A DNA stretch of 64,000 nucleotides from an uncultured Pseudomonadales bacterium (GTDB taxonomy: Bacteria > Patescibacteriota > Microgenomatia > UBA1400 > PJMF01). Both the position numbers and the translations under genes were made by a program. Positions 2,703 to 61,550 of the stretch are shown in pieces. The stretch lies in the NCBI GenBank assembly GCA_964633875.1, contig CAZWKL010000005.1, forward strand, positions 12,412-76,411, in the 5' to 3' direction. Every line of letters begins with the position of its first letter. The first letter of the stretch is position 1. Under the pieces are notes generated by a model that ran no database searches, was not told where the DNA came from, and saw nothing but the letters and a program-made list of their open reading frames with translations.

Positions 2703-2942
2703 GTGATGGCAGACTATAAAAAAGGACCTCTGGTCATATCAATAAAACAGATTAAGGGTGAAACTCCTGCGAAGATCACTTTCGTTGGTGAAAAAGAGGA
2801 CAAATATCCGAATAATCTGTATATTGACGTTACTCCAGAAGAAGCAGCAGAAATTCGTAGCACTGGACAACTACCTGTATCAGTACAAGATAAAATATCA
2901 GAAAGTCAGCACACTCTGCCACCAGATAACTCGGCCGCTTAG
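2703..2942 (+). CDS. hypothetical small protein (79 aa)
   Basis: ORF in an AT-rich intergenic region with no recognisable motif. Its 3' end overlaps tRNA-Val by about 10 nt. It may be spurious. Confidence 0.25.
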   Translation: MMADYKKGPLVISIKQIKGETPAKITFVGEKEDKYPNNLYIDVTPEEAAEIRSTGQLPVSVQDKISESQHTLPPDNSAA

Positions 2943-3006
2943 CTCAGTTGGTTAGAGCGTCCGGTTTACATCCGGGAAGTCGGGGGTTCGAGTCCCTCAG
3001 CGGCCA
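2933..3006 (+). tRNA. tRNA-Val(TAC)
   Basis: GGCCGCTTAGCTCAGTTGGTTAGAGCGTCCGGTTTACATCCGGGAAGTCGGGGGTTCGAGTCCCTCAGCGGCCA. Anticodon loop TTTACAT gives anticodon TAC. Confidence 0.85.
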
Positions 3007-3011
3007 CATAT

Positions 3012-3060
3012 GCCAAGCTAGCCAAGGTGGTTCCGCCTACGGCGGATCTGAAAAACATGA
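3012..3060 (+). pseudogene. degenerate 5' fragment copy of tRNA-Phe carrying a TCCGCC-TAC-GGCGGA hairpin ('decoy')
   Basis: The first 20 nt (GCCAAGCTAGCCAAGGTGGT) are identical to the tRNA-Phe 5' end at 3093. The hairpin TCCGCCTACGGCGGA (3032-3046) then replaces the D-stem/anticodon-stem segment. The 14 nt TCTGAAAAACATGA is shared with the anticodon loop region. No T-arm or acceptor 3' strand follows. Confidence 0.7.
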
Positions 3061-3092
3061 AACGCTAGCGATTAACAAACGATTTGATACAA

Positions 3093-3168
3093 GCCAAGCT
3101 AGCCAAGGTGGTCACGGCGCATGTCTGAAAAACATGAGATTGAGGTTCGACTCCTCAGCTTGGCACCA
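3093..3168 (+). tRNA. tRNA-Phe(GAA) with encoded CCA
   Basis: Acceptor GCCAAGC/GCTTGGC plus ACCA; anticodon stem CATGT/ACATG with loop CTGAAAA (anticodon GAA); T-arm TGAGG-TTCGACT-CCTCA. Confidence 0.8.
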
Positions 3169-3212: not shown

Positions 3213-4028
3213 TTACTCTTTCCACTGTGCGTTTGCCTTCTTATGATCGGCCTCATCGGCAACATCAAACCAAATTCCCTGAAAAATAAAAGCGCTCAGC
3301 TCTCCGTTTTCGGCCAGTTTAGGAAAAATGTCTGCCTCCATGCTGGCCACTTTGCCCCTGGGAATAGCCGTCAAAACCTCCGAATTTAGAACATAAATGC
3401 CGGTATTAACAATACTAATACCTTTATTGGCGCCCCTCTCCATAAAACGAATGATTTTATTGCCATGCAGAAAAGCCTGGCCAAATTTTTTCTCACTCAT
3501 TCGCGGCTTAACCCCAATCGTTGCCTTCGTATTTTCGCGCAAATGAAACTTAATCAAATCTTGAAGATTAATATCTGTCAAAACATCGCCGTGAATGACC
3601 AAAAAAGGATTGCCTGTCACATATTTTTCAGTCAATTTAAGAGCGCCGGCCGTGCCCAGCGGCTTTTTTTCCTCCACATAGGTAAGCTTCACCCCAAACT
3701 GGCTGCCATCGCCAAAAACTGTTTTAATCTGTTTTTCGTAAATACCGCCACAAACGTAAACATCAACAATTCCATGCTTCTTGAGATTTTCCAAAGTAAT
3801 GGCCAATAAAGGCCGGTTGCCAATTTTTTTCAGCGCGAGCGGAGTAGCTAATTTTCTCTTGCCACCAGCCAAAATCACCGCCATCGACACTGTTGGCTCC
3901 ATGCTGCTACGAATCAGCAACTCAATCGCGTGAGAACGATTACGCACTGCTTTGCCATCCACCAAATCATCAACCTTGGTTAAAAGCTCTCCGGGTAAAG
4001 TAATTGTCAACCTGGACTTGTGCCTCAT
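3213..4028 (-). CDS. sugar-phosphate nucleotidyltransferase with N-terminal ribbon-helix-helix-like segment
   Basis: MAVILAGGKRKLATP...(G-rich NTP_transferase signature) plus the core nucleotidyltransferase fold. The roughly 45 aa N-terminus (LTITLPGELLTKVDDLVDGKAVRNRSHAIELLIR) looks like a CopG/RHH domain. Confidence 0.7.
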   Translation of the reverse strand: MRHKSRLTITLPGELLTKVDDLVDGKAVRNRSHAIELLIRSSMEPTVSMAVILAGGKRKLATPLALKKIGNRPLLAITLENLKKHGIVDVYVCGGIYEKQIKTVFGDGSQFGVKLTYVEEKKPLGTAGALKLTEKYVTGNPFLVIHGDVLTDINLQDLIKFHLRENTKATIGVKPRMSEKKFGQAFLHGNKIIRFMERGANKGISIVNTGIYVLNSEVLTAIPRGKVASMEADIFPKLAENGELSAFIFQGIWFDVADEADHKKANAQWKE

Positions 4029-4091: not shown

Positions 4092-5123
4092 CTATTCCGC
4101 AGCACTGAGCTGCAGTTGCTGGTTAAAATATTGCTTCTCCATAGCTGAGCGAAAGGCATTATATTGGGCAGTAGGATTATCGGCTGTATCAAGAAAACTA
4201 AAACCGGCAAACGGCCCGGGCGAGCCTTTCAAAATAAACGGTGTCACCGCTGCCACTCTGTCATGCGACCAAATATGCTCAAGAGCGTAAACATAGTAAG
4301 CGGGCAACCAACGCCTGAGAGCAGAGCTTTCCTCCCAGCCGGTTTCAGTGATATAAACTTGCAAATCTTGCTTAGTTTTACCTGCCAAAAACTGTAGCTC
4401 ATACTCGAAACCATTCATGCCATTTTTGGCTTTTCTCTGCGGTGAGGCCGCGAAACCAGGATTAGGATAAGAGTGCGAGTTCCAAGCATCAGCATAAGCA
4501 AAAATCTCTGGGTCAAACTCATGCATCCGCGTTAAATAATTAAAAGCTTCCATAGTTTCCGGACCATTAGGAGCGGCCAAATCCATCGCTGCCGGCATCA
4601 CTACAAACGCACTGTCCACCGCGTGAGCCCAACTGCTGGCAAAACGAAAAACCCGGGCGTAATCAATCGGATCAATGACGCCACCCCATTCCTTAGCGTG
4701 ATTGACCTCGTTGTAAATAATGATGTGTTTCTGCTGAGTGGGCCACTGAAATTGACTCAAGGCATTGATCTGATCCACTGTATTTTTGCGGTTGGGAATA
4801 GTCCAGCCCTGGCCATCCATGGTAGAGGCCAGTCTGACAATAGGAATAATTCTGTTTTCCTTGGCTTCATCGAAAAACTTTTGCCACTGAGAGGTTTTGT
4901 CAATGTCCTCAAGAGTGTAGGGCACCGTCACGTAATGCCAATTTTTATCTACCTCATGCATCCGCACCAACTGCTTGGCATCCACTATTTCTTCAGGATG
5001 AAGAATATGAATACCCATCTTAGAAACATTGGCTGCGCTGACCTGAGCAGGAAACACCCACAGCCCAAAAAACAGCAAGCTGAGCAACAATTTTTTCATC
5101 ATTGTAATATTATAGGATATCAT
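4092..5123 (-). CDS. secreted glycoside hydrolase, clan GH-A (GH5-like TIM barrel)
   Basis: Signal peptide MMKKLLLSLLFFGLWVFPAQVSA. NE in IIIYNEVNH and E in ITETGWE match the acid/base and nucleophile motifs of GH-A enzymes. Confidence 0.5.
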   Translation of the reverse strand: MISYNITMMKKLLLSLLFFGLWVFPAQVSAANVSKMGIHILHPEEIVDAKQLVRMHEVDKNWHYVTVPYTLEDIDKTSQWQKFFDEAKENRIIPIVRLASTMDGQGWTIPNRKNTVDQINALSQFQWPTQQKHIIIYNEVNHAKEWGGVIDPIDYARVFRFASSWAHAVDSAFVVMPAAMDLAAPNGPETMEAFNYLTRMHEFDPEIFAYADAWNSHSYPNPGFAASPQRKAKNGMNGFEYELQFLAGKTKQDLQVYITETGWEESSALRRWLPAYYVYALEHIWSHDRVAAVTPFILKGSPGPFAGFSFLDTADNPTAQYNAFRSAMEKQYFNQQLQLSAAE

Positions 5124-32946: not shown

Positions 32947-32974
32947 TTGACAATCACTTGCCAGATGTTAAGAT
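32947..32974 (+). promoter_or_regulatory. putative sigma70-like rRNA promoter
   Basis: TTGACA (32947-52), about 16 nt spacer, TAAGAT. It lies about 500 nt upstream of 16S and is followed by a GC hairpin and a boxA-like AAACAATTTA. Confidence 0.35.
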
Positions 32975-33377
32975 ATAAATCCTCATAGAGATCAAGTCTC
33001 CGCCAACTGGCGGACGAAACTAGTCTCCCCAAACAATTTAAGTTGTGCATTAGCCAAGATGATAGAGAGAATCAAACCTCTCTGTTTTTTGCTGATTCAA
33101 TTGGGAAAAGAGGATTGGCGGTAATTTAAGACCGCCCAGCTATTTAAAAAGTGAATATCTGACATAAACATGGTGGTAGAACCGCGACACAAAAGTGTGA
33201 GAAGCGGAACACTATCATGTTTTTTATGACAGTGATCCGTCATATTTGAACTTTGAGTTCAGTAAAGACTGCGAGTAATTCGCAGCACAAATACGTATAA
33301 CGTAAACACAATGAGCACAAATTCAAACCTCAATTAAGTCAATAGCTTTTTAGACTTCGGTTTAAAAAGTTAAAGAA

Positions 33378-33440
33378 ATTCTTTATGAGAGTTTGATCCG
33401 CCGCAGGCGGATGAACGCTGGCCAGCTTTTGCCGGTCCAA
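33378..33440 (+). other. degenerate duplicate of the 16S 5' end carrying a TCCGCC-GCA-GGCGGA hairpin (leader 'decoy')
   Basis: TTTATGAGAGTTTGATCC and GGATGAACGCTGG are identical to 16S positions 1 to about 40 at 33466 onward. The native CTGGCTCAGG is replaced by GCCGCAGGCGG, which keeps a hairpin. Confidence 0.7.
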
Positions 33441-33473
33441 CGTAACAAACAATCATGAAGACAGCTTTTTTAT

Positions 33474-33509
<36 letters not shown>

Positions 33510-34505
33510 TGTGCCTTAGGCATGCAAGTCGAACGGGAAGTCTCCTTCGGGAGACAGAGAGTGGCAGACGGGTGAGTAACGCGTAGGAATCTACCCAGTA
33601 GTGGGGAATAGCCCACCGAAAGGTGGGGTAATACCGCATACGATCGCAAGATGAAATCTACCGCAAGGTGGAGCTATTGGAGGAGCCTGCGTGCTATCAG
33701 CTAGTTGGTGGGGTAATGGCCTACCAAGGCGACGACGGCTAGCCGATGTGAGAGCATGATCGGCCACAAGGCTACTGAGACACGGAGCCTACACCTACGG
33801 GTGGCAGCAACCGGGAATATTGCGCAATGGACGAAAGTCTGACGCAGCGACACCGCGTGTGGGAAGACGCTCTTCGGAGTGTAAACCACTGTGGCGAGGG
33901 ATGAAGTTCTGACAGTACCTCGCTAGAAAGCACCAGCTAACTACGTGCCAGAAGCTTCGGTAATACGTGGGGTGCAAGCGTTATCCGGATTTACTGGGCG
34001 TAAAGGGTCCGTCGGCGTCCCTGTAAGTCTCTTGTTCAAGCCCGAGGCTCAACTTCGGAAAGGCAAGGGAAACTGCAAGGATAGAGTTTGTTCGAGGAAA
34101 CTAGAATTCTTGGTGGAGGGGTGAAATCCGTAGATATCAAGAGGAATACCATGCGCGAAGGCAGGTTTCTAGGACATAACTGACGCTCAGGGACGAAAGC
34201 TTGGGTAGCAAATGGGATTAGAGACCCCAGTAGTCCAAGCTGTAAACATTCCTTGCTAGTTGTCCGCCTTTGGGTGGATGACGTAAGCTAACGCGTTAAG
34301 CAAGGCGCCTGGGGAGTACGACCGCAAGGTTAAAACTCAAAGGAATTGACGGGGGAGCGCACAACCGGTGGAGCATGTGGTTTAATTCGATACAAAGCGA
34401 AAAACCTTACCCGGATTTGACATGTACCTGCACGTCTGCCGAAAGGCAGACTTCTTCGAGAGTGGTACACAGGTGATGCATGGCTGTCGTCAGCTCGTGT
34501 CGTGA

Positions 34506-35393
34506 ACAAAAAACTCGCGACCCGTACTAGAAATGGTACGAGAAAAATCTGGCTCATATCGGTGAAGTCCGGTTATCGCAAACTGTTTGCAAGGAAATTC
34601 TTGTAAACTTGCCATAATGGATAATACCGAGGGAAGTCGGGTAATTACGAGTGTCTTTAGAGCTCGGAAAAATCTTGAGCTCTGTTTAACTAATCGTCAA
34701 ATGTCCATAGTTCTAGGTTCAATTCTCGGTGACGCTTATGTCCATCCAAAAGGAAAAATCTGCTTTGAACACTCAGAGCAGCAAAAAAATTACCTTTTAT
34801 GGAAGTATGTAGAACTAAAGAATTTAGCTTATCCTCAAGTAGCAAAAGTTACTCGTAAGGATAGGCGGAACAACAAACAGACAATTAGTTGGCGGTTCTT
34901 CTTGAGGCAATATTTTCGCCCCCTGAGAGCTGCTTTCTATTTCAAAGGCAAAAAAGTAGTACCAGATGATCTTAATCTTTGGTTTACGCCCTTGCTTTTG
35001 TCGGTCTGGTACATGGATGACGGATACCTTGATCAAGGAAAATACCCAGTTTTTATGACTGAGTGCTTTGATAACAAAAATATAAGTCTTCTAACAGAAA
35101 TGTTAAGAGAAATATTTAAACTGCAAAGCATTATTACTTCCAAGAACAGGATCCGTATAGTTAGTAAAAGCAGAACACAATTCTTTTCACTGATAGAGCC
35201 GCATATTACTAAAGACCTCAAATATAAATTACCCTGACCCCGTAACGACTGGAAGCCGCTTATCAGGCGGTGGAAGATCCGCCCCAGGCGGATAACACGC
35301 CAGCCCCTATTTTCTGTAATTGATTTCTGTAATTGATTATAGAAAAAGGGTGAAGGTATAGTCTGGCATTTAGAGTAATCTAGATGGTTTTGG
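34506..35393 (+). mobile_element. 16S intron 1 (about 0.9 kb, probably group I) with homing endonuclease ORF
   Basis: The sequence between 16S exon GTCGTGA and the resumption GACGTCTATTTAAGTATAGTAACGAGCGCAACCC. Boundaries are approximate to within a few nt. Confidence 0.7.
34587..35237 (+). CDS. LAGLIDADG homing endonuclease (double-motif) encoded in 16S intron 1
   Basis: Motifs LGSILGDAYV and VWYMDDGYL. The start may be internal (MSIVLGSILGDAY). Confidence 0.8.
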   Translation: MQGNSCKLAIMDNTEGSRVITSVFRARKNLELCLTNRQMSIVLGSILGDAYVHPKGKICFEHSEQQKNYLLWKYVELKNLAYPQVAKVTRKDRRNNKQTISWRFFLRQYFRPLRAAFYFKGKKVVPDDLNLWFTPLLLSVWYMDDGYLDQGKYPVFMTECFDNKNISLLTEMLREIFKLQSIITSKNRIRIVSKSRTQFFSLIEPHITKDLKYKLP

Positions 35394-35700
35394 AGACGTC
35401 TATTTAAGTATAGTAACGAGCGCAACCCTTGCCGTATGTTATACGTGTCATGCGGGACTGCCTGTGCATTGCACAGGAGGAAGGAGAGGACGACGTCAAG
35501 TCAGCATGTCCCTTACATCCGGGGCTACACACATCCTACAATGGGGTAGACAACAGGTATAGCAACAGCGCGAGCTAGAGCCAATCCTCTAAACTACTCC
35601 TCAGTTCGGATTGGAGGCTGCAATTCGCCTCCATGAAGCCGGAATCGGTAGTAATCGCAAATCAGCAGGTTGCGGTGAATACGTTCTCGCTCCTTGTACA

Positions 35701-36606
35701 AATAAATATGCGCCTTCCGCGCATACTATCCAGTTAGTTTAAATCTAACGTGTCATAAGCAAGTAGACACAAGCAAAATTGCAAGCCTATCCGGGTAACC
35801 GGCAGGCTGAAGGGCAAAAGTAGCGGTGGTCAGCTTGGAGTTTAAACGGCATAGTGCTGTGAGGATCCTGCGTACAACTGGAGAACTCACTTGCTAACAC
35901 AAACAGCACTCTGTATGTGGGCTCGAGATGATCGCGAATGGATAGTATGTGAACGAAGGGAGATCCTGTTTGCTCTCTATTTGATGCAAAGAAAATAGAG
36001 TATAGTGAAGGTAACAACACTAAATTAGTAAGCAGGAAGTCTGCAGAGGTCATAGTATCAGCGCCTTGGCGTTGAGAAGGACCAAACTTAGTGTCATGAA
36101 ATTGTCTCCTGAATATGTGTGCGGGTTTGTTGATGGCGAAGGTTGCTTCACTATCACCATTGCCAAGCACAAACAGAAAAAACTCGGCATCGATGCCCGT
36201 CTTCATTTTGAGATTGAAGTGCGAGCAGATGATATTGAAATTCTGAGAAGAATTCAAGAAACGCTGGAGTGTGGCAGAATATATCATCTCAATTATGAGA
36301 GGTATGGCTGGCATCCCCATGCAGAATTCAAGGTTTCTTCTTTAAAGGACATTAGAGAAAAAGTAATACCATTCTTTCAAAGGTATCCACTTCAGGCAAA
36401 GAAAAAGGTTGCTTTTGACCAATTCGTTAAAGCAGCAAAGATTTTTGCCGAAAAGCGACACCTAACCTCAGAAGGTATTAAAGAATTAAAACAAATCAGG
36501 AAACAAATGAATATATATAGACACCAAGGGTTCGCCACGGTGCGGGAAAACCGCGCGCCGGGCGGCGAGAGACACATGAATCAGTGATGACATGATGATC
36601 TCAGAA
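35701..36606 (+). mobile_element. 16S intron 2 (about 0.9 kb) with homing endonuclease ORF
   Basis: Insertion between CCTTGTACA and CACTGCCCGTCAAGCC. Boundaries are approximate. Confidence 0.7.
36096..36587 (+). CDS. LAGLIDADG homing endonuclease (single-motif) encoded in 16S intron 2
   Basis: CGFVDGEGCFTITI is the LAGLIDADG motif. The ORF track extends the start to 36066. Confidence 0.8.
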   Translation: MKLSPEYVCGFVDGEGCFTITIAKHKQKKLGIDARLHFEIEVRADDIEILRRIQETLECGRIYHLNYERYGWHPHAEFKVSSLKDIREKVIPFFQRYPLQAKKKVAFDQFVKAAKIFAEKRHLTSEGIKELKQIRKQMNIYRHQGFATVRENRAPGGERHMNQ

Positions 36607-37122
36607 CACTGCCCGTCAAGCCAGCAAAGTCAGCAACGCCCGAAGCGGGTGACCGTAATTATCTTTTGATGAAGCGGCCCTTCTACGGCGAGGTTGGCGA
36701 TGAGGACTAAGTCGTAACAAGGTATCCGTACTGGAAGGTGCGGATGGATCACCTCCTTTCTAAGGAGATGGGTAGGAGCAATCACGACCTCCTGTTTCCC
36801 GCGCTTAGTAATAAGCGCAAAACAAATTAAAAAAATCCCGTGGCTATCATACCCGGGCCGTGTCCGCCGGAAGCGGATCGGCTCTACCACCATGTTTGTG
36901 TCAGAATTCACTTAAACATTTTCCAAACTTTTGTTAATTTCAGCAAGAATTGGTCAAGCCAGTGAGCTAGTTTAATGATATCTTCTATATCAAAACATAT
37001 CTTTATACATCATTTTTCCTTGATACATCAACCAGAAAAATTTCAGCCGCAATTTAGCAGTCTTTTTTCTTGTCTGCTAATTACTACTTCACACCATCTC
37101 ATAATCTAGTTACAATAACTGA

Positions 37123-37581
37123 GTGCCAAGTAAAATCAAAAACTACACCCTAGTGTTTCTGTTTAATGAGGATCTTTCTAAGGTAGTGCTCATCAAGAAA
37201 ACTCGGCCTAAGTGGCAGAAAAATAAGTTCAATGGCGTTGGTGGAAAAATTGAGAATGGAGAAAAAACTGTTGAAGCTGCAGCTCGGGAAATAAAGGAGG
37301 AAACAGGTTATGTCATTAATAATAAGTCAAAATTAATAAAAATTGCCAGCATGGAATCGAATGAGTGGAAAGTACATATCTTTGCCGCTCAAATATATGA
37401 AGATGTAAAAATGCACGAAGCCACAGAAGAAGGAGAGGTTCAGTGGCACCAAACAAGCAATCTGCCCACTAACTGTATAGATAACTTGCCTTGGTTAATT
37501 CCATTATGCCAAAATAAACTAAAAGAAAATTACATTGATAGATGCCATATTTTTTACAAAAACGACACCGAGCATCAGTAA
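37123..37581 (+). CDS. NUDIX hydrolase
   Basis: NUDIX box GGKIENGEKTVEAAAREIKEETG. GTG start. Confidence 0.8.
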   Translation: MPSKIKNYTLVFLFNEDLSKVVLIKKTRPKWQKNKFNGVGGKIENGEKTVEAAAREIKEETGYVINNKSKLIKIASMESNEWKVHIFAAQIYEDVKMHEATEEGEVQWHQTSNLPTNCIDNLPWLIPLCQNKLKENYIDRCHIFYKNDTEHQ

Positions 37582-37601
37582 ATGCCTAAAGGAGGACGCT
37601 T

Positions 37602-40166
37602 ATGGATATGAACAAACTCACCACTAAATCAGCCGAAGCCCTGCAAGGGGCGATGCAACTGGCCGGAGAGCTGTCTCATCCGGAAATTTTGCCGCTCCAC
37701 CTGGCAGTTGTTTTGATCAATCAGCCGGCAGGGATTGTGCCGGCACTTTTGCAAAAACTGGATCAGGACCCGCAAAAAATTTCCAGCGCTCTCCAAGAAG
37801 CACTGAGCCAAAAGCCCACCGTGTCCGGGCCCACCCAGGCCTATCTCTCTTCAGCTTTAAAAACAGTCTTTGATGTTGCCGAGAAAGAAGCCGGACAAAT
37901 GAAAGACGAGTTTGTCAGCACCGAGCACTTGTTTTTAGGCTTGCTGGAACAAAAAGAAGTTGGCGAAATTTTCGCTGTCTCAACCAAAGAAGTCAAAAGC
38001 GCGCTTAAAAACCTGCGAGGCAAGCAAAAAGTCACCGACCGTGATCCTGAAAACAAGTTTCAGGCTTTAGAAAAATATACTCTGGACTTCACCCAGTTGG
38101 CTGCTGACGGCAAGATCGATCCCGTTATCGGCAGGGATCAAGAAATCCGCCGGATTATGCAAATTCTGTCCCGCCGCACCAAAAATAATCCAGTGCTGGT
38201 AGGGGAGCCGGGAGTTGGTAAAACCGCTATCGTGGAAGGCTTAGCTAAGAAAATTATTGAAAATGATGTCCCAGACCAACTGCGGAATAAGAAATTGCTT
38301 TCGCTGGATATGGGTAGCTTGGTGGCTGGAACCAAGTATAGAGGAGAATTTGAGGACAGATTGAAAGCAGTAATTCAGGAAATCGAAGCAGCGGAGGGAC
38401 AAATCATTCTCTTTATTGATGAGCTGCACACCATTGTCGGCGCCGGAGCGGCGGAAGGCTCTACCGATGCCGGCAATCTGCTTAAGCCGGCTTTAGCTCG
38501 TGGCAGTCTACGTACAATTGGCGCCACCACTTTGAAAGAATATCGCCAGTATGTGGAAAAAGACGCTGCCCTGGAACGGCGCTTCCAGCCAGTGATGGTT
38601 AACGAACCAAGTGTGAGCGACACCATTTCCATTCTTAGAGGCATTAAAGAAAAGTACGAAACTCACCACGGGGTGAGGATTAGGGACAACGCTTTGGTGG
38701 CCGCGGCCAAGCTTTCCGACCGCTATCTGCCTGACAGATTTCTGCCTGACAAAGCCATCGACCTTATGGACGAAGCCGCCGCGGCCATCAAAATTGAACT
38801 CGACAGCAAGCCTACCGAGCTTGATCAACTAGAAAGACACCTCCGGCAGCTGGAAATTGAAAAGCAAGCGCTCAAAAAAGAAACCGATGAGCAATCCAAA
38901 TCCAGGCTGAACAAGATTGAAAAAGAGCTTTCCGATCTGGGAGAGCAGTACTCGCAGCTGGAACTGCAGTGGCAAAATGAAAAGAAAGTCATTGATGAAA
39001 TCAAGTCCTTAAATCAAAAATTGGATGAACTCAGAGAGGCGGCAGCCCAAGCCGAGCGCAATCTTGACCTGCAAAAGGCAGCAGAAATAAATTATGGCGA
39101 AATTCCCAGTGCCAAAAAGCGCCTCGACGAACTCCAGCAAGAATTGGAAGAAGTGCAGCAACATCAGCAAATTCTCAAAGAAGAGGTGACGGAGGAGGAT
39201 ATAGCCAGGGTGATTGCCCGCTGGACGGGTATTCCCACCGAAAAAATGCTCATGGAGGAAAGTGAAAAACTCGCCAAGATGGAAGAGGAGATCGGTGTGC
39301 GCTTGATTGGACAACGCCAGGCGGTGGCGGCCGTCGCCAACGCGGTCCGGCGTAGCCGGGCAGGGATTAAGGAGGAGGGCCGGCCGATTGGTTCGTTTAT
39401 GTTTCTTGGCCCCACCGGGGTTGGTAAAACCGAATTGGCCAAGGCTTTAGCGGAGTTTCTTTTCAACGATGAAGACGCCATTATCCGTATTGATATGAGT
39501 GAGTACATGGAGCGCCACGCGGTTGCCAGACTAATCGGCGCTCCTCCCGGTTACATCGGCTACGAAGAGGGCGGCCAGCTCACCGAAGCGGTGCGGCGCC
39601 GGCCATACAGCGTAGTTCTTTTTGATGAAATTGAAAAAGCCCACCCAGAAGTTTTCAACACTCTGCTGCAAATCCTTGACGAAGGCAGACTGACAGACAG
39701 CAAAGGCAGAACTGTTGATTTTAAGAATACTGTTATCATCATGACTTCCAACCTCGGCAGCGACAAAATTCAAGCGCTCCAGGGTGATAAGCCAGCAGTA
39801 GAGGAGGCGGTCCACCAAGTTCTCAGCCAAAAATTCCGCCCGGAATTCCTCAACCGCCTCGATGAGATTATTATTTTTGACCCACTTTCAGAGGCAGAAA
39901 TCGGCCAGATCGTTAAACTGCAAATCGCTGAGGTGCAAAAAAGGCTGGCGGACAAAAATATTACTATCGAAATATCAGCAGAAGCCGCCGCCGAGTTGGC
40001 TAAACAAGGTTTCGATCCGGTTTTCGGCGCCAGACCGCTCAAGCGCCTGATTCAAAATACCATTCTGGACCAGCTTTCCCTGCTGATTATTGAAGGTAAA
40101 ATCAAAGAAGGCGGAAAAGTCAAAGCGGTGGTGAAAAACGGCCGGATTGTCTTAAATAAGGCGTGA
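37602..40166 (+). CDS. clpB: ATP-dependent chaperone ClpB
   Basis: Two AAA+ modules ([16 protein letters not shown]), a coiled-coil middle domain, the ClpB N-domain, 854 aa. Confidence 0.95.
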
Positions 40167-40228
40167 TATAATTCAATTCGCGCCAATTTTTGCGCCTGCT
40201 TATGTTACAATAACCCTCTCAGGAAGAT

Positions 40229-40302
40229 GGGTGACTAGCTCAGTTGGTTAGAGCGCAGTCCTGATAAGACTGAGGTCAATGGTTCGAATCCATTGTCACC
40301 CA
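40229..40302 (+). tRNA. tRNA-Ile(GAT)
   Basis: GGGTGACTAGCTCAGTTGGTTAGAGCGCAGTCCTGATAAGACTGAGGTCAATGGTTCGAATCCATTGTCACCCA. Anticodon loop CTGATAA gives anticodon GAT. Confidence 0.85.
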
Positions 40303-40378
40303 CATTTTCTTTTCCCATAGGTTCGCTGTTCCTATTCACCCTTGCGCTTTAGCAGACAAACATTTAGAATGCTAATTT

Positions 40379-54728: not shown

Positions 54729-54741
54729 GTGAAGGATTTTG

Positions 54742-55090
54742 ATACAGAGTTCATAAGCCGGATTCTGTACTAGGTAATGATTTATCTAATGCCTGAAGCT
54801 TTATCATCGGCCGCTATAAAGCGGCTGGGAATAGATCCAATGCGATGAAACTCGTCAGTTGCAGCGGGGAGGATTGCCGCCCATTTGGCCTGAGCCAAAC
54901 CAGCACCCGATAGCTTGGTCGTTTCAACTGCCGCTACGCAGCTCGTCTCTGTGGCTCTGACTGTATCCGCCCGGGGGCGGACCTTTGGCTTAAACCTCAC
55001 GAAGAGGCCACCGCCAAACACCCTCTATTCTGCTGTCCGGACTTTCCTCCCATTGCGTTGAGCGCAACAGGCCATTACCGAACTCTGTGG
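54742..55090 (-). ncRNA. rnpB: RNase P RNA (bacterial type A)
   Basis: Minus-strand RNA contains P4 GGGAGGAAAGUCCGGAC (plus strand ctgtccggactttcctccc), the 3' consensus ACAGAAUCCGGCUUAU, and P1 pairing ACAGAGUUC with GAACUCUGU. Ends approximate to within about 5 nt. Confidence 0.8.
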
Positions 55091-61005: not shown

Positions 61006-61057
61006 TGTTTGGTAGACCAGCGCCTCAATTTCTTGCTATAATGCACTCCTCAAATAA

Positions 61058-61131
61058 GAACTCGTAGCTCAGTTGGTTAGTCCGCCTACGGCGGAGACAT
61101 CGAAGAGGGCGGGAGGTTGAAAATTAAATAA
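61058..61131 (+). pseudogene. degenerate 5' fragment copy of tRNA-Val(GAC) carrying a TCCGCC-TAC-GGCGGA hairpin ('decoy')
   Basis: 23 nt GAACTCGTAGCTCAGTTGGTTAG are identical to the tRNA-Val 5' end at 61132. The hairpin TCCGCCTACGGCGGA (61081-61095) follows, then the shared GACATCGAAGAGG, then divergence. An extended -10 TGcTATAAT (61034-61042) lies upstream. Confidence 0.7.
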
Positions 61132-61205
61132 GAACTCGTAGCTCAGTTGGTTAGAGCGCTTCGTTGACATCGAAGAGGTCAGAGGTTCGAGTCCTCTCGA
61201 GTTCA
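61132..61205 (+). tRNA. tRNA-Val(GAC)
   Basis: GAACTCGTAGCTCAGTTGGTTAGAGCGCTTCGTTGACATCGAAGAGGTCAGAGGTTCGAGTCCTCTCGAGTTCA. Anticodon loop TTGACAT gives GAC. Confidence 0.85.
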
Positions 61206-61550
61206 CCCTAGATCCGATTTTTCAACTGGTTCCAAACAAGTGACTACAAACTCGTGTCTGGTTCCCCTATCTTTAAAAGGCAGCTCTGCGTACTCAATTG
61301 TAAATGACTTTGCTTCTCTAAATTGCTCAAGTTTTTCCTTCAAACGACTCATCTGCCTATTAAAAAGCCAGCCCCCAGTAGCAACCACGCAGTTTAATTG
61401 GTCGCCTGGCTTCATCGCCTTACACAGCTCCAACAACCTAGGAAAGTTTATAGGCTCAGAGAATGTTAACTCAGCATTTTGCACTGGACCAATATCTTTA
61501 TTATGTTCATGCATTTTTCTCCTTCCTATTAAATTACCAAAATATATCAT
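61203..61550 (-). CDS. hypothetical protein (115 aa)
   Basis: ORF between tRNA-Val and infC with no confident motif. The start may be internal (MHEHNKD). Confidence 0.3.
   Translation of the reverse strand: MIYFGNLIGRRKMHEHNKDIGPVQNAELTFSEPINFPRLLELCKAMKPGDQLNCVVATGGWLFNRQMSRLKEKLEQFREAKSFTIEYAELPFKDRGTRHEFVVTCLEPVEKSDLG

Follow-up and report, generated by a model that had tools for sequence, protein, structure and literature searches.

What does it mean when a truncated copy of the start of an RNA gene, interrupted by a GC-rich hairpin, stands immediately upstream of the intact gene? The question is raised by a 64,000-nucleotide (nt) stretch of a genome of the Patescibacteriota (the window, which we use for the whole stretch), in which such a copy, here called a decoy, precedes the gene for tRNA-Phe between positions 3012 and 3168 and similar decoys precede tRNA-Val(gac) and the 16S rRNA gene. 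We propose that the window decoys are probably non-functional, hairpin-marked partial duplicates that were left when a cassette carrying a GIY-YIG endonuclease open reading frame (ORF) invaded stable-RNA genes, and that the tRNA-Phe decoy is most likely a scar rather than a regulatory device. The tRNA-Phe decoy and its neighbours, for which direct reading and repeat finding give the same layout, are as follows.

2933 to 3007, forward strand: tRNA-Val(tac), directly 5' of the decoy (ARAGORN, Rfam).
3012 to 3031, forward strand: left arm (A) of the pseudo-tRNA-Phe, equivalent to tRNA positions 1-20, with 20/20 identity to 3093-3112.
3032 to 3046, forward strand: hairpin TCCGCC-TAC-GGCGGA, TCCGCCTACGGCGGA, in place of the native CACGGCGCATG.
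3047 to 3060, forward strand: right arm (C) of the pseudo-tRNA-Phe, comprising the anticodon loop and the 3' strand of the anticodon stem, with 14/14 identity to 3124-3137.
3061 to 3092, forward strand: spacer of 32 nt, occupying the slot of the GIY-YIG ORF in relatives, with no detectable ORF remnant.
3093 to 3168, forward strand: intact tRNA-Phe(gaa) (ARAGORN, Rfam).

These coordinates and identities agree with those of a sequence-only reading of the same DNA, which had described a truncated, hairpin-bearing tRNA-Phe copy (segments of 20, 15 and 14 nt) lying 32 nt before the intact gene. The replaced segment, CACGGCGCATG, is the 11 nt that form the 3' strand of the D stem and the 5' strand of the anticodon stem of tRNA-Phe. 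Neither this decoy (3012-3060) nor that of tRNA-Val(gac) (61052-61125) is called as a tRNA by ARAGORN or Rfam, and tRNA models recognize no cloverleaf in them.

The same layout occurs elsewhere with a gene in the position of the spacer. A scan of metagenomes for the hairpin together with the tRNA-Phe anticodon loop gave 21 loci, six of which have real tRNA-Phe copies (L129, L134 and L138, which have the same sequence, L137, L145 and L149), while the rest are chance matches. In L129, L134/L138, L149, L150 and L137 a pseudo-tRNA-Phe is followed by an ATG-initiated GIY-YIG ORF and then by intact tRNA-Phe, with the ORF in the slot that the 32-nt spacer takes in the window, and in L129, L134/L138 and L149 tRNA-Val(tac) lies immediately 5' of the pseudo copy, as it does in the window. 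The left arm of L150 is identical to that of the window, and the same 11-nt hairpin substitution at the same place in tRNA-Phe is seen in L125, L129, L134, L137, L149 and L150; in a further locus, L151, Ns hide the left arm of one copy. In a single case, L134, the arm of the pseudo copy (GCCGAGGTAGCC..GGTGGT) represents a tRNA-Phe allele, similar to that of the L145 pseudo-tRNA, other than that of the adjacent intact gene (GCCAGGATAGCC..TTGGT). The 86-amino acid (aa) ORF of L129, L134 and L149 begins at the very end of the pseudo copy (GAGAT/G, the slash marking the junction) and runs in frame into tRNA-Phe, so that the protein ends in a tail of the form ARIAKxVTAxV and its stop codon is the TGA of the anticodon loop. 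These ORFs (L129 2709-2969, L134 4387-4647, L149 610-870) have no stop codon of their own, and since the stop lies within the anticodon loop of tRNA-Phe, cleavage of the precursor by RNase P would leave a stop-less mRNA and could thereby set a built-in limit on nuclease expression.

The design was also recovered by a protein search that is independent of the hairpin. A profile built from four of the ORFs retrieved 2378 relatives, including seventeen clusters (P0121-P0137) of 86-aa proteins with a tail encoded by tRNA-Phe. The tails of P0125, P0139 and P0141 ('VPPxAD') are the hairpin translated in the tRNA frame, and P0142 begins within a pseudo copy that has the same left arm as the window. 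All six locus groups reached through proteins alone show the same design, in a variety of arrangements. L150 has a second hairpin copy downstream of the intact tRNA-Phe, followed by a different GIY-YIG ORF before tRNA-Gly, and L151/L152 are tandem, with intact tRNA-Phe, ORF, pseudo copy, ORF and pseudo copy in that order. In L155 nine to ten tandem 41-nt units, each consisting of arm, hairpin and arm, abut the intact tRNA-Phe, and the ORF and a full-length hairpin copy come after them; the array (2500-2912 of ENA ERZ21878178 contig_5), in which the unit is GCCGCGGTAG + TCCGCCGTGGCGGA + CAAAGGACAGAAATCTA, superficially resembles a guide or repeat array. Other targets are tRNA-Ser in L154, where the gene is followed by the ORF and a partial 3' copy with two insertions in the T loop (TCAGCC-GAA-GGCTGA and TCCGCC-TCT-GGCGGA) that split it exactly at GGGTTC^GAATCC, and tRNA-Arg in cultured Bizionia (L156-L159), where a pseudo-tRNA-Arg with an inserted 20-nt palindrome precedes the ORF and the intact gene. 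In Woesebacteria (L160-L163) a pseudo-tRNA-Val(gac), the ORF, intact tRNA-Val(gac) and a second pseudo copy follow one another, with GTCGCC-TTG-GGCGAC replacing the anticodon arm in the pseudo copy, and on account of this cassette tRNA-Val(gac), the second target in the window, is a documented target elsewhere. None of the viral contigs searched for this GIY-YIG family gave a confirmed member. The recurrence of the architecture in many independent assemblies disposes of an assembly artefact.

The proteins themselves are small. The cassette ORFs encode 75-86 aa, residues 1-69 of which match the GIY-YIG family (Pfam PF01541, E = 3e-15 to 7e-18), and Pfam detects no separate DNA-binding domain in them, only the GIY-YIG catalytic domain. 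The nearest solved structures are those of the UPF0213 proteins 1YWL (E = 1.5e-5) and 1ZG2 (E = 3.7e-5), and the proteins encoded at tRNA-Phe, Val, Ser and Arg are 42-72% identical to one another. Among 11 sequences the class of hairpin shows no pattern with respect to nuclease similarity. A 47-aa C-terminal fragment of the L125 ORF used as protein query gave no candidate, there being too few shared words.

The distribution of the decoy among close relatives is patchy. Orthologous tRNA-Val(tac)-tRNA-Phe loci were retrieved by means of the convergent NTP-transferase gene that neighbours them (3213-4028 in the window), and the adjacency of the two tRNA genes is kept in relatives. In L123 (neighbour 66% identical) the two tRNA genes are separated by 3 nt and in L127/L128 (63% identical) by 34 nt, with no decoy in either case. 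In L125, whose neighbour is 91% identical and whose tRNA-Phe is the same except for the 3' CCA, 32 nt separate the tRNAs and there is again no upstream decoy, but the mirror arrangement is present: the ATG of an intact 79-aa GIY-YIG ORF directly follows the intact tRNA-Phe, the ORF ends in a TAG formed by positions 8-10 of a second tRNA-Phe copy, and this copy runs to the tRNA 3' end with the same 11 nt replaced by TCCGCC-ACA-GGCGGA. The Val-Phe spacer of L125 aligns weakly to the right arm and spacer of the window (p about 0.02), which hints, from alignment alone, that the decoy could be older than the split between the two and have decayed in L125. If the decoy does predate that split, the perfect arms in the window would need gene conversion or selection. 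The tRNA-Phe decoy is not a conserved leader element, and L125 may keep a decayed trace of it. An upstream duplicate of tRNA-Phe is hence lacking in some related genomes (L123, L127/L128 and L125), whereas in others (L129, L134/L138, L149, L150 and L137) a pseudo copy is present together with the ORF. Presence and absence are polymorphic at this locus, with six states among relatives.

Empty: L123, L127/L128.
Pseudo copy only: the window.
Pseudo copy, ORF, intact gene: L129, L134, L149.
Intact gene, ORF, pseudo copy: L125, L151.
Both sides: L137, L150.
Arrays: L155.

Partial duplications of tRNA genes are the classic mark of integrase-mediated integration, and the decoys might accordingly be taken for attL/attR-type remnants of an island or prophage that was later deleted. 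We give almost no credence to this explanation. No integrase is found near any decoy (in the list of window ORFs) or in any related locus, and no island bearing an integrase between direct repeats was found; only 21-43 nt lie between the end of the right arm of a pseudo copy and the intact gene; and what is duplicated is the 5' portion, in which an internal segment has been substituted, as is also the case at the 5' end of 16S rRNA. The related loci contradict an origin of this kind.

The decoys of tRNA-Val(gac) and 16S rRNA, for which the same architecture had been claimed, do have arms and hairpin at both genes. The three partial 5' copies lie 74-87 nt upstream of the real genes, and in each about 10-11 native bases are swapped for TCCGCC-N3-GGCGGA.

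61052 to 61125, forward strand: pseudo-tRNA-Val(gac), a 74-nt tandem-duplication unit.
61052 to 61080, forward strand: left arm of this decoy, 7 nt of leader and tRNA positions 1-22, identical to 61126-61154.
61081 to 61095, forward strand: its hairpin TCCGCCTACGGCGGA, the same 15 nt as in the tRNA-Phe decoy.
61096 to 61108, forward strand: its right arm, identical to 61166-61178.
61109 to 61125, forward strand: degenerate stretch resembling a T arm.
61132 to 61207, forward strand: intact tRNA-Val(gac) (ARAGORN, Rfam).
33379 to 33465, forward strand: pseudo 16S 5' end, with left arm 33379-33399, hairpin 33397-33411, right arm 33409-33422 and spacer 33423-33465.
33468 to 36770, forward strand: 16S rRNA gene with two insertions that carry LAGLIDADG ORFs (Rfam, 3' end motif, Pfam).

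The tRNA-Val decoy resembles a plain 74-nt tandem duplication in which the first copy has acquired the hairpin and, after it, a degenerate T arm; a promoter-like site (61013-61042) lies just 5' of it. At the 16S decoy 33382-33399 is identical to 33469-33486 and 33409-33422 to 33494-33507, and the hairpin is TCCGCC-GCA-GGCGGA. Contigs L165 and L166 (Logan SRR8449813 and SRR13001968), which come from other samples and encode an identical ribosomal protein L20, end (at their position 1) inside tRNA-Val(gac) at or just past the duplicated right arm, which suggests that the repeat, or else strain variation at this locus, breaks short-read assemblies.

The 16S decoy is where the idea of a native leader RNA has to be weighed. 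The sequence-only reading had offered a processing or antitermination module, with a boxB-like hairpin and the boxA-like TAACAAAC, and a wider version holds that the decoys are cis-acting leader RNAs for processing, antitermination or folding, including a copy/anti-copy switch. The motif TAACAAAC[A/G]AT is indeed common to the tRNA-Phe and 16S spacers, a stretch of the 16S spacer (33446-33461) is complementary both to the decoy and to the real 16S 5' end, and the 16S leader folds better than shuffled sequences (z = -3.9). Duplicated 16S starts were sought by scanning genome contigs for GAGTTTGATC-N55-85-GAGTTTGATC, a scan that gives no frequencies; the informative cases among the matches listed are L067, L093, L111 and L112, and the others are for the most part repeats in coding sequence, boxA look-alikes of the Bacillus type and perfect duplications resembling assembly artefacts. 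L111 and L112 have comparable hairpin-interrupted copies of the 16S 5' end. In L067 (about 331-420, Berkelbacteria) and L093 (minus strand, about 4101-4200, another Patescibacteria genome) the 16S leader has a short copy of the 16S 5' end and then a perfect 21-nt complement of the real one (CAAACTCTCATAAAA...), a copy/anti-copy/real arrangement that speaks for a leader function and is possibly a folding or processing switch. At the tRNA genes the picture is different: TAACAAAC is found in only two of the three spacers, being absent from that of tRNA-Val(gac), and in the 16S spacer it sits inside the stretch complementary to the 16S 5' end; the tRNA-Phe and tRNA-Val leaders match no Rfam family and fold no better than shuffles (z = -1.3 and -0.6), the minimum-energy fold of the tRNA-Phe leader pairing the decoy acceptor strand with the 3' end of the real tRNA; the tRNA-Phe module is lacking in L123 and L127/L128, whose operons share the structure and the order of tRNA-Val and tRNA-Phe, and in L125 apart from the possible decayed trace; and elsewhere the same pseudo copies flank a mobile ORF. 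We therefore consider a leader RNA highly improbable. The further suggestion that the decoy titrates a host factor binding RNA 5' ends found no support, although the hairpin copy may bind, or be immune to, the nuclease of the element itself.

The 16S gene is unusual in other ways. It is about 3.3 kb long; its first insertion (about 34506-35400) holds a LAGLIDADG_2 ORF (34587-35237, E = 4e-31) and a weak match to a group I intron, and the second (about 35700-36600) has a match to group II D1-D4 (36000-36082) and a LAGLIDADG_1 ORF (36066-36587, E = 3e-23). Downstream (36770-40303) there is no 23S rRNA, so that the rRNA genes are unlinked, and this region contains instead a NUDIX gene (37123-37581), a ClpB-like gene (37602-40166) and tRNA-Ile(gat) (40229-40303).

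The hairpin itself is far more frequent in the window than expected, as had been claimed. TCCGCC-N3-GGCGGA occurs four times and not once in any of 100 shuffles, which excludes a chance origin of the decoys, and two further copies have a 4-nt loop (32999 and 54966). The same stem accounts for 6 of the 14 GC-rich 6-bp hairpins of the window, and the earlier statement that the motif is always in a stable-RNA context holds for six of six copies when those with a 4-nt loop are included: the three decoys, a 16S insertion, a site upstream of 16S and the RNase P RNA. The three copies outside the decoys are listed here.

32999 to 33014, no strand assigned: solo hairpin TCCGCC-AACT-GGCGGA without a gene copy beside it; a promoter-like site in front of 16S has its -10 hexamer about 25 nt before the hairpin.
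35278 to 35292, no strand assigned: solo hairpin TCCGCC-CCA-GGCGGA, within the first, LAGLIDADG-carrying 16S insertion.
54966 to 54981, no strand assigned: the same stem with a 4-nt loop, in RNase P RNA and aligned to a native peripheral hairpin.

The hairpin at 32999 was considered as a further decoy and rejected, as it has no more than an 11-mer in common with 32660 and gives no alignment. It stands within a region (32947-33095) with a promoter-like TTGACA-16-TAAGAT (32947-32974) and a terminator-like hairpin with a T run (33061-33095), and the whole, in front of 16S, could be an attenuated leader or the gene of a small RNA some 110 nt long. The RNase P RNA (class A, 54738-55090, minus strand) scores 94.8 bits against an Rfam gathering score of 100 and is missed by a default scan.

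Solo hairpins such as these would fit a different explanation, in which the hairpins are independent palindromic mobile repeats of the REP (repetitive extragenic palindrome) or GC-cluster type that settle in tolerant non-coding or dead sequence, the RNA-gene duplications are a separate matter and the link to GIY-YIG is indirect. The three same-stem copies outside gene copies (32999, 35278 and 54966) are in keeping with it, as are the two different hairpins that stand side by side in L154 and the occurrence of one hairpin class in unrelated hosts, since the palindrome of the Bizionia tRNA-Arg copy is of the same class as that interrupting the 16S 5' copy of L111 (Saccharibacteria). We nevertheless think it very unlikely: every locus examined with an ORF of this GIY-YIG subfamily has a hairpin in its pseudo copy, within roughly 10-25 nt of an ORF boundary, while no intact copy has one; the same 11 nt of tRNA-Phe are replaced in independent arrangements on either side of the gene; and there are only six copies in 64 kb, none of them in ordinary intergenic DNA.

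We propose the following course of events for the invasion of stable-RNA genes by a GIY-YIG cassette, the most economical one in view of how free-standing GIY-YIG endonucleases such as phage SegB behave. A small free-standing GIY-YIG endonuclease, with a catalytic domain only and similar to UPF0213, would break a stable-RNA gene, and as an essential gene cannot be split, only lineages with one intact copy after repair would persist. Beside the intact copy these would carry a partial copy with its centre swapped for a GC-rich palindrome, the nuclease ORF lying between the two. The hairpin copy could not fold as a tRNA and would presumably be uncuttable as well, and the hairpin, which probably marks the segment of cleavage or recognition, would interrupt a direct repeat that might otherwise delete the ORF by recombination. 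The spacers of the window may once have held such ORFs, since deleted, or else the duplications may be the work, in trans, of a nuclease whose gene lies elsewhere, for which the amplification driven by the phage endonuclease SegB and the ORF-free units of L155 would be parallels; what is left in the window would be pseudo copies followed by 21-43 nt of spacer or degenerate sequence. The suggestion, made from the sequence, that the decoys are footprints of a small hairpin element that duplicates its target comes close to these comparative data, although the mobile agent would be a GIY-YIG nuclease ORF that is absent from the window. As to the hairpin, it may be a disrupted cleavage site, a handle for nuclease binding or an inert scar.

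Several observations weigh against this proposal. A GIY-YIG ORF is present at the related loci, but neither tblastn nor an unfiltered profile search detected an ORF or a remnant of one in the window or in a further 20 kb of the source contig, and the window accordingly holds footprints and not the cassette. The spacers align to the 3' end of the L150 ORF no better than shuffles do (local alignment, p = 0.63, 0.52 and 0.06), so that a former ORF at the three window loci is inferred from position. Nor is there among the loci examined any example of a 16S decoy with an adjacent ORF, and the copy/anti-copy leaders of L067 and L093 could be a native folding device, a role that the 16S decoy could share. 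Where the ORF is present, an intact target lies beside the nuclease gene, and simple immunity by disruption of the site fails to explain how self-cleavage is avoided, just as the proposal leaves unexplained how a catalytic domain of about 80 aa would locate its particular site in each of several RNA genes. Nor does a mere scar account for the occurrence of the same stem across different targets and phyla and in a functional RNase P RNA, and in the window the stem also stands in a 16S insertion and near a promoter-like site. Lastly, the arms adjacent to the hairpins, about 109 nt in all, have no mismatches while the sequence just beyond them is degenerate, which would need gene conversion or selection. 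The reading of TAACAAAC as Leu-Thr-Asn codons, an idea taken from the P0142 tail GRELTNN, was rejected, as the alignment is not above shuffles and a profile search finds nothing.

Some of these difficulties would be lifted if the hairpin copy were a working module, in which the hairpin binds the minimal GIY-YIG nuclease and the arms give target specificity. Such a module may act as a guide (single-stranded DNA or RNA), or it may shield the intact gene as a competitor that cannot be cleaved, and the modules in the window may serve, or have served, a nuclease encoded elsewhere in the genome. It would suit a protein that lacks a DNA-binding domain and yet occupies sharply defined positions within tRNA-Phe, Val, Ser and Arg, and a TCCGCC/GGCGGA stem that is the same across targets and across loci found without using the stem. 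The hairpin loops vary between 2 and 4 nt across loci, which fits a hairpin better than a palindromic site in B-form DNA, and the nine to ten tandem units of L155 and the mismatch-free arms of the window in spite of the missing ORF point the same way. On the other hand, identical arms are expected anyway of a recent duplicate or of gene conversion, the full-length pseudo copies of L125, L151 and L155 far exceed what a guide needs, the left arm of L134 differs from the adjacent intact tRNA at several positions, and the class of hairpin does not follow nuclease similarity, albeit in a small sample. Compared with a scaffold and guide of the OMEGA or bridge-RNA type, the unit has a conserved hairpin and target-matching arms and borders the ORF in relatives, all of which is expected just as much of a plain partial duplicate. 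A working module is on balance unlikely. Its more specific form, in which the arm-hairpin-arm unit is the targeting module of the 75-86 aa nuclease and the arms specify the target by base pairing or strand invasion, we hold to be less probable still; if true, it would explain how near-identical proteins consisting only of a catalytic domain home to different tRNA and rRNA genes, and why arrays of units accumulate as in L155.

GIY-YIG genes of other subfamilies also lie between tRNA genes in these genomes (L129 3237-3446, L134 2237-2569 and L150 about 612-860, between Gly/Gln, Arg/His and Phe/Gly, respectively), and tRNA clusters of the candidate phyla radiation (CPR) appear to be hot spots for GIY-YIG genes. 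Between a GIY-YIG ORF of a different subfamily and the intact tRNA-Gly(gcc) further downstream, L149 has at about 1250-1320 two partial copies of the 5' part of this tRNA gene (GCGCGGGTGTAGTTCAGTAGTAGCCCGCC.. and GCGAGGGTAGTTCAGAGGTAGCCCGCC..), and each ends in a CCCGCC that is able to pair with its own acceptor strand, there being no separate palindrome. Full-length pseudo-tRNA-Phe copies in L145 (9331-9408), L151 (749-825) and L152 (277-353) are called as tRNA-Arg(tcg) or tRNA-Ala(tgc) by ARAGORN, which takes the loop of the hairpin for the anticodon and the true anticodon arm for a long variable arm.

If the cassette proposal is right, decoy copies of the starts of tRNA and rRNA genes in CPR bacteria, which could otherwise be mistaken for regulatory leaders, would be tied to a mobile element, and hairpin-bearing copies are a likely source of false tRNA annotations. 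The element would be a selfish one of a kind that we have not found described: a GIY-YIG gene with a catalytic domain only that colonizes essential RNA genes without an intron, keeps the RNA gene alive by duplicating it and leaves a diagnostic palindrome in the dead copy. As it is carried by cultured Bizionia, the finding of targets, the function of the hairpin and the possible retargeting of the nuclease by the arms are all open to experiment.

How does such a cassette compare with known systems? In the literature searched we found no published description of an architecture that combines hairpin-marked copies of RNA genes with GIY-YIG ORFs. The UPF0213/YhbQ-type proteins (1YWL, 1ZG2) are like the cassette ORFs in size and in having the catalytic domain only, and the same literature assigns them no biological role and no link to the duplication of tRNA genes. 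In the homing of the intron-encoded I-TevI and the intronless homing of the phage Seg enzymes the nuclease cuts the allele that is free of the element and repair copies the element in, while the element-bearing allele differs at the critical site; the cleavage site of I-TevI lies about 23-25 bp from the insertion site. The cassette shares this homing logic, with the centre of its hairpin roughly 10-25 nt from the ORF boundary, but it has no intron that would restore the gene in the RNA, gene function is kept by duplication, the protein lacks a DNA-binding domain and the intact target persists beside the ORF. In the mitochondria of Allomyces, Paquin, Lang and co-workers reportedly found a mobile GIY-YIG ORF at the 3' end of atp6 together with a replacement gene segment; the displaced resident segment is said to stay as a pseudo-copy, with GC-rich double-hairpin elements at the borders of mobile DNA. 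That system is like the cassette in having a GIY-YIG ORF at an essential gene, a pseudo-copy and GC-rich hairpins, and unlike it in that the target is a protein-coding organelle gene; we know of no report that its hairpin elements replace a defined internal segment in a duplicated copy.

SegB is a GIY-YIG endonuclease encoded within the tRNA cluster of phages T4 and T6 that cuts inside tRNA genes and promotes recombination-dependent segmental (tandem) amplification of segments containing tRNAs, and the motif that it prefers, RAWTSGAAC, corresponds in reverse complement to the T-loop sequence GTTCGAATC (PMC2330249; PMC13096335). The cassette likewise places a GIY-YIG gene among tRNA genes, and the T loop that holds the SegB motif is the site of the hairpins in L154. 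SegB is a phage protein of more than 200 aa with a C-terminal DNA-binding region, whereas the cassette ORFs of 75-86 aa are chromosomal (Patescibacteria, Bacteroidota) and often in frame with the tRNA, and hairpin-substituted pseudo-tRNA copies are not known to have been described for SegB. The systems nearest in concept to the cassette are SegB, intronless homing and the atp6 insertion of Allomyces.

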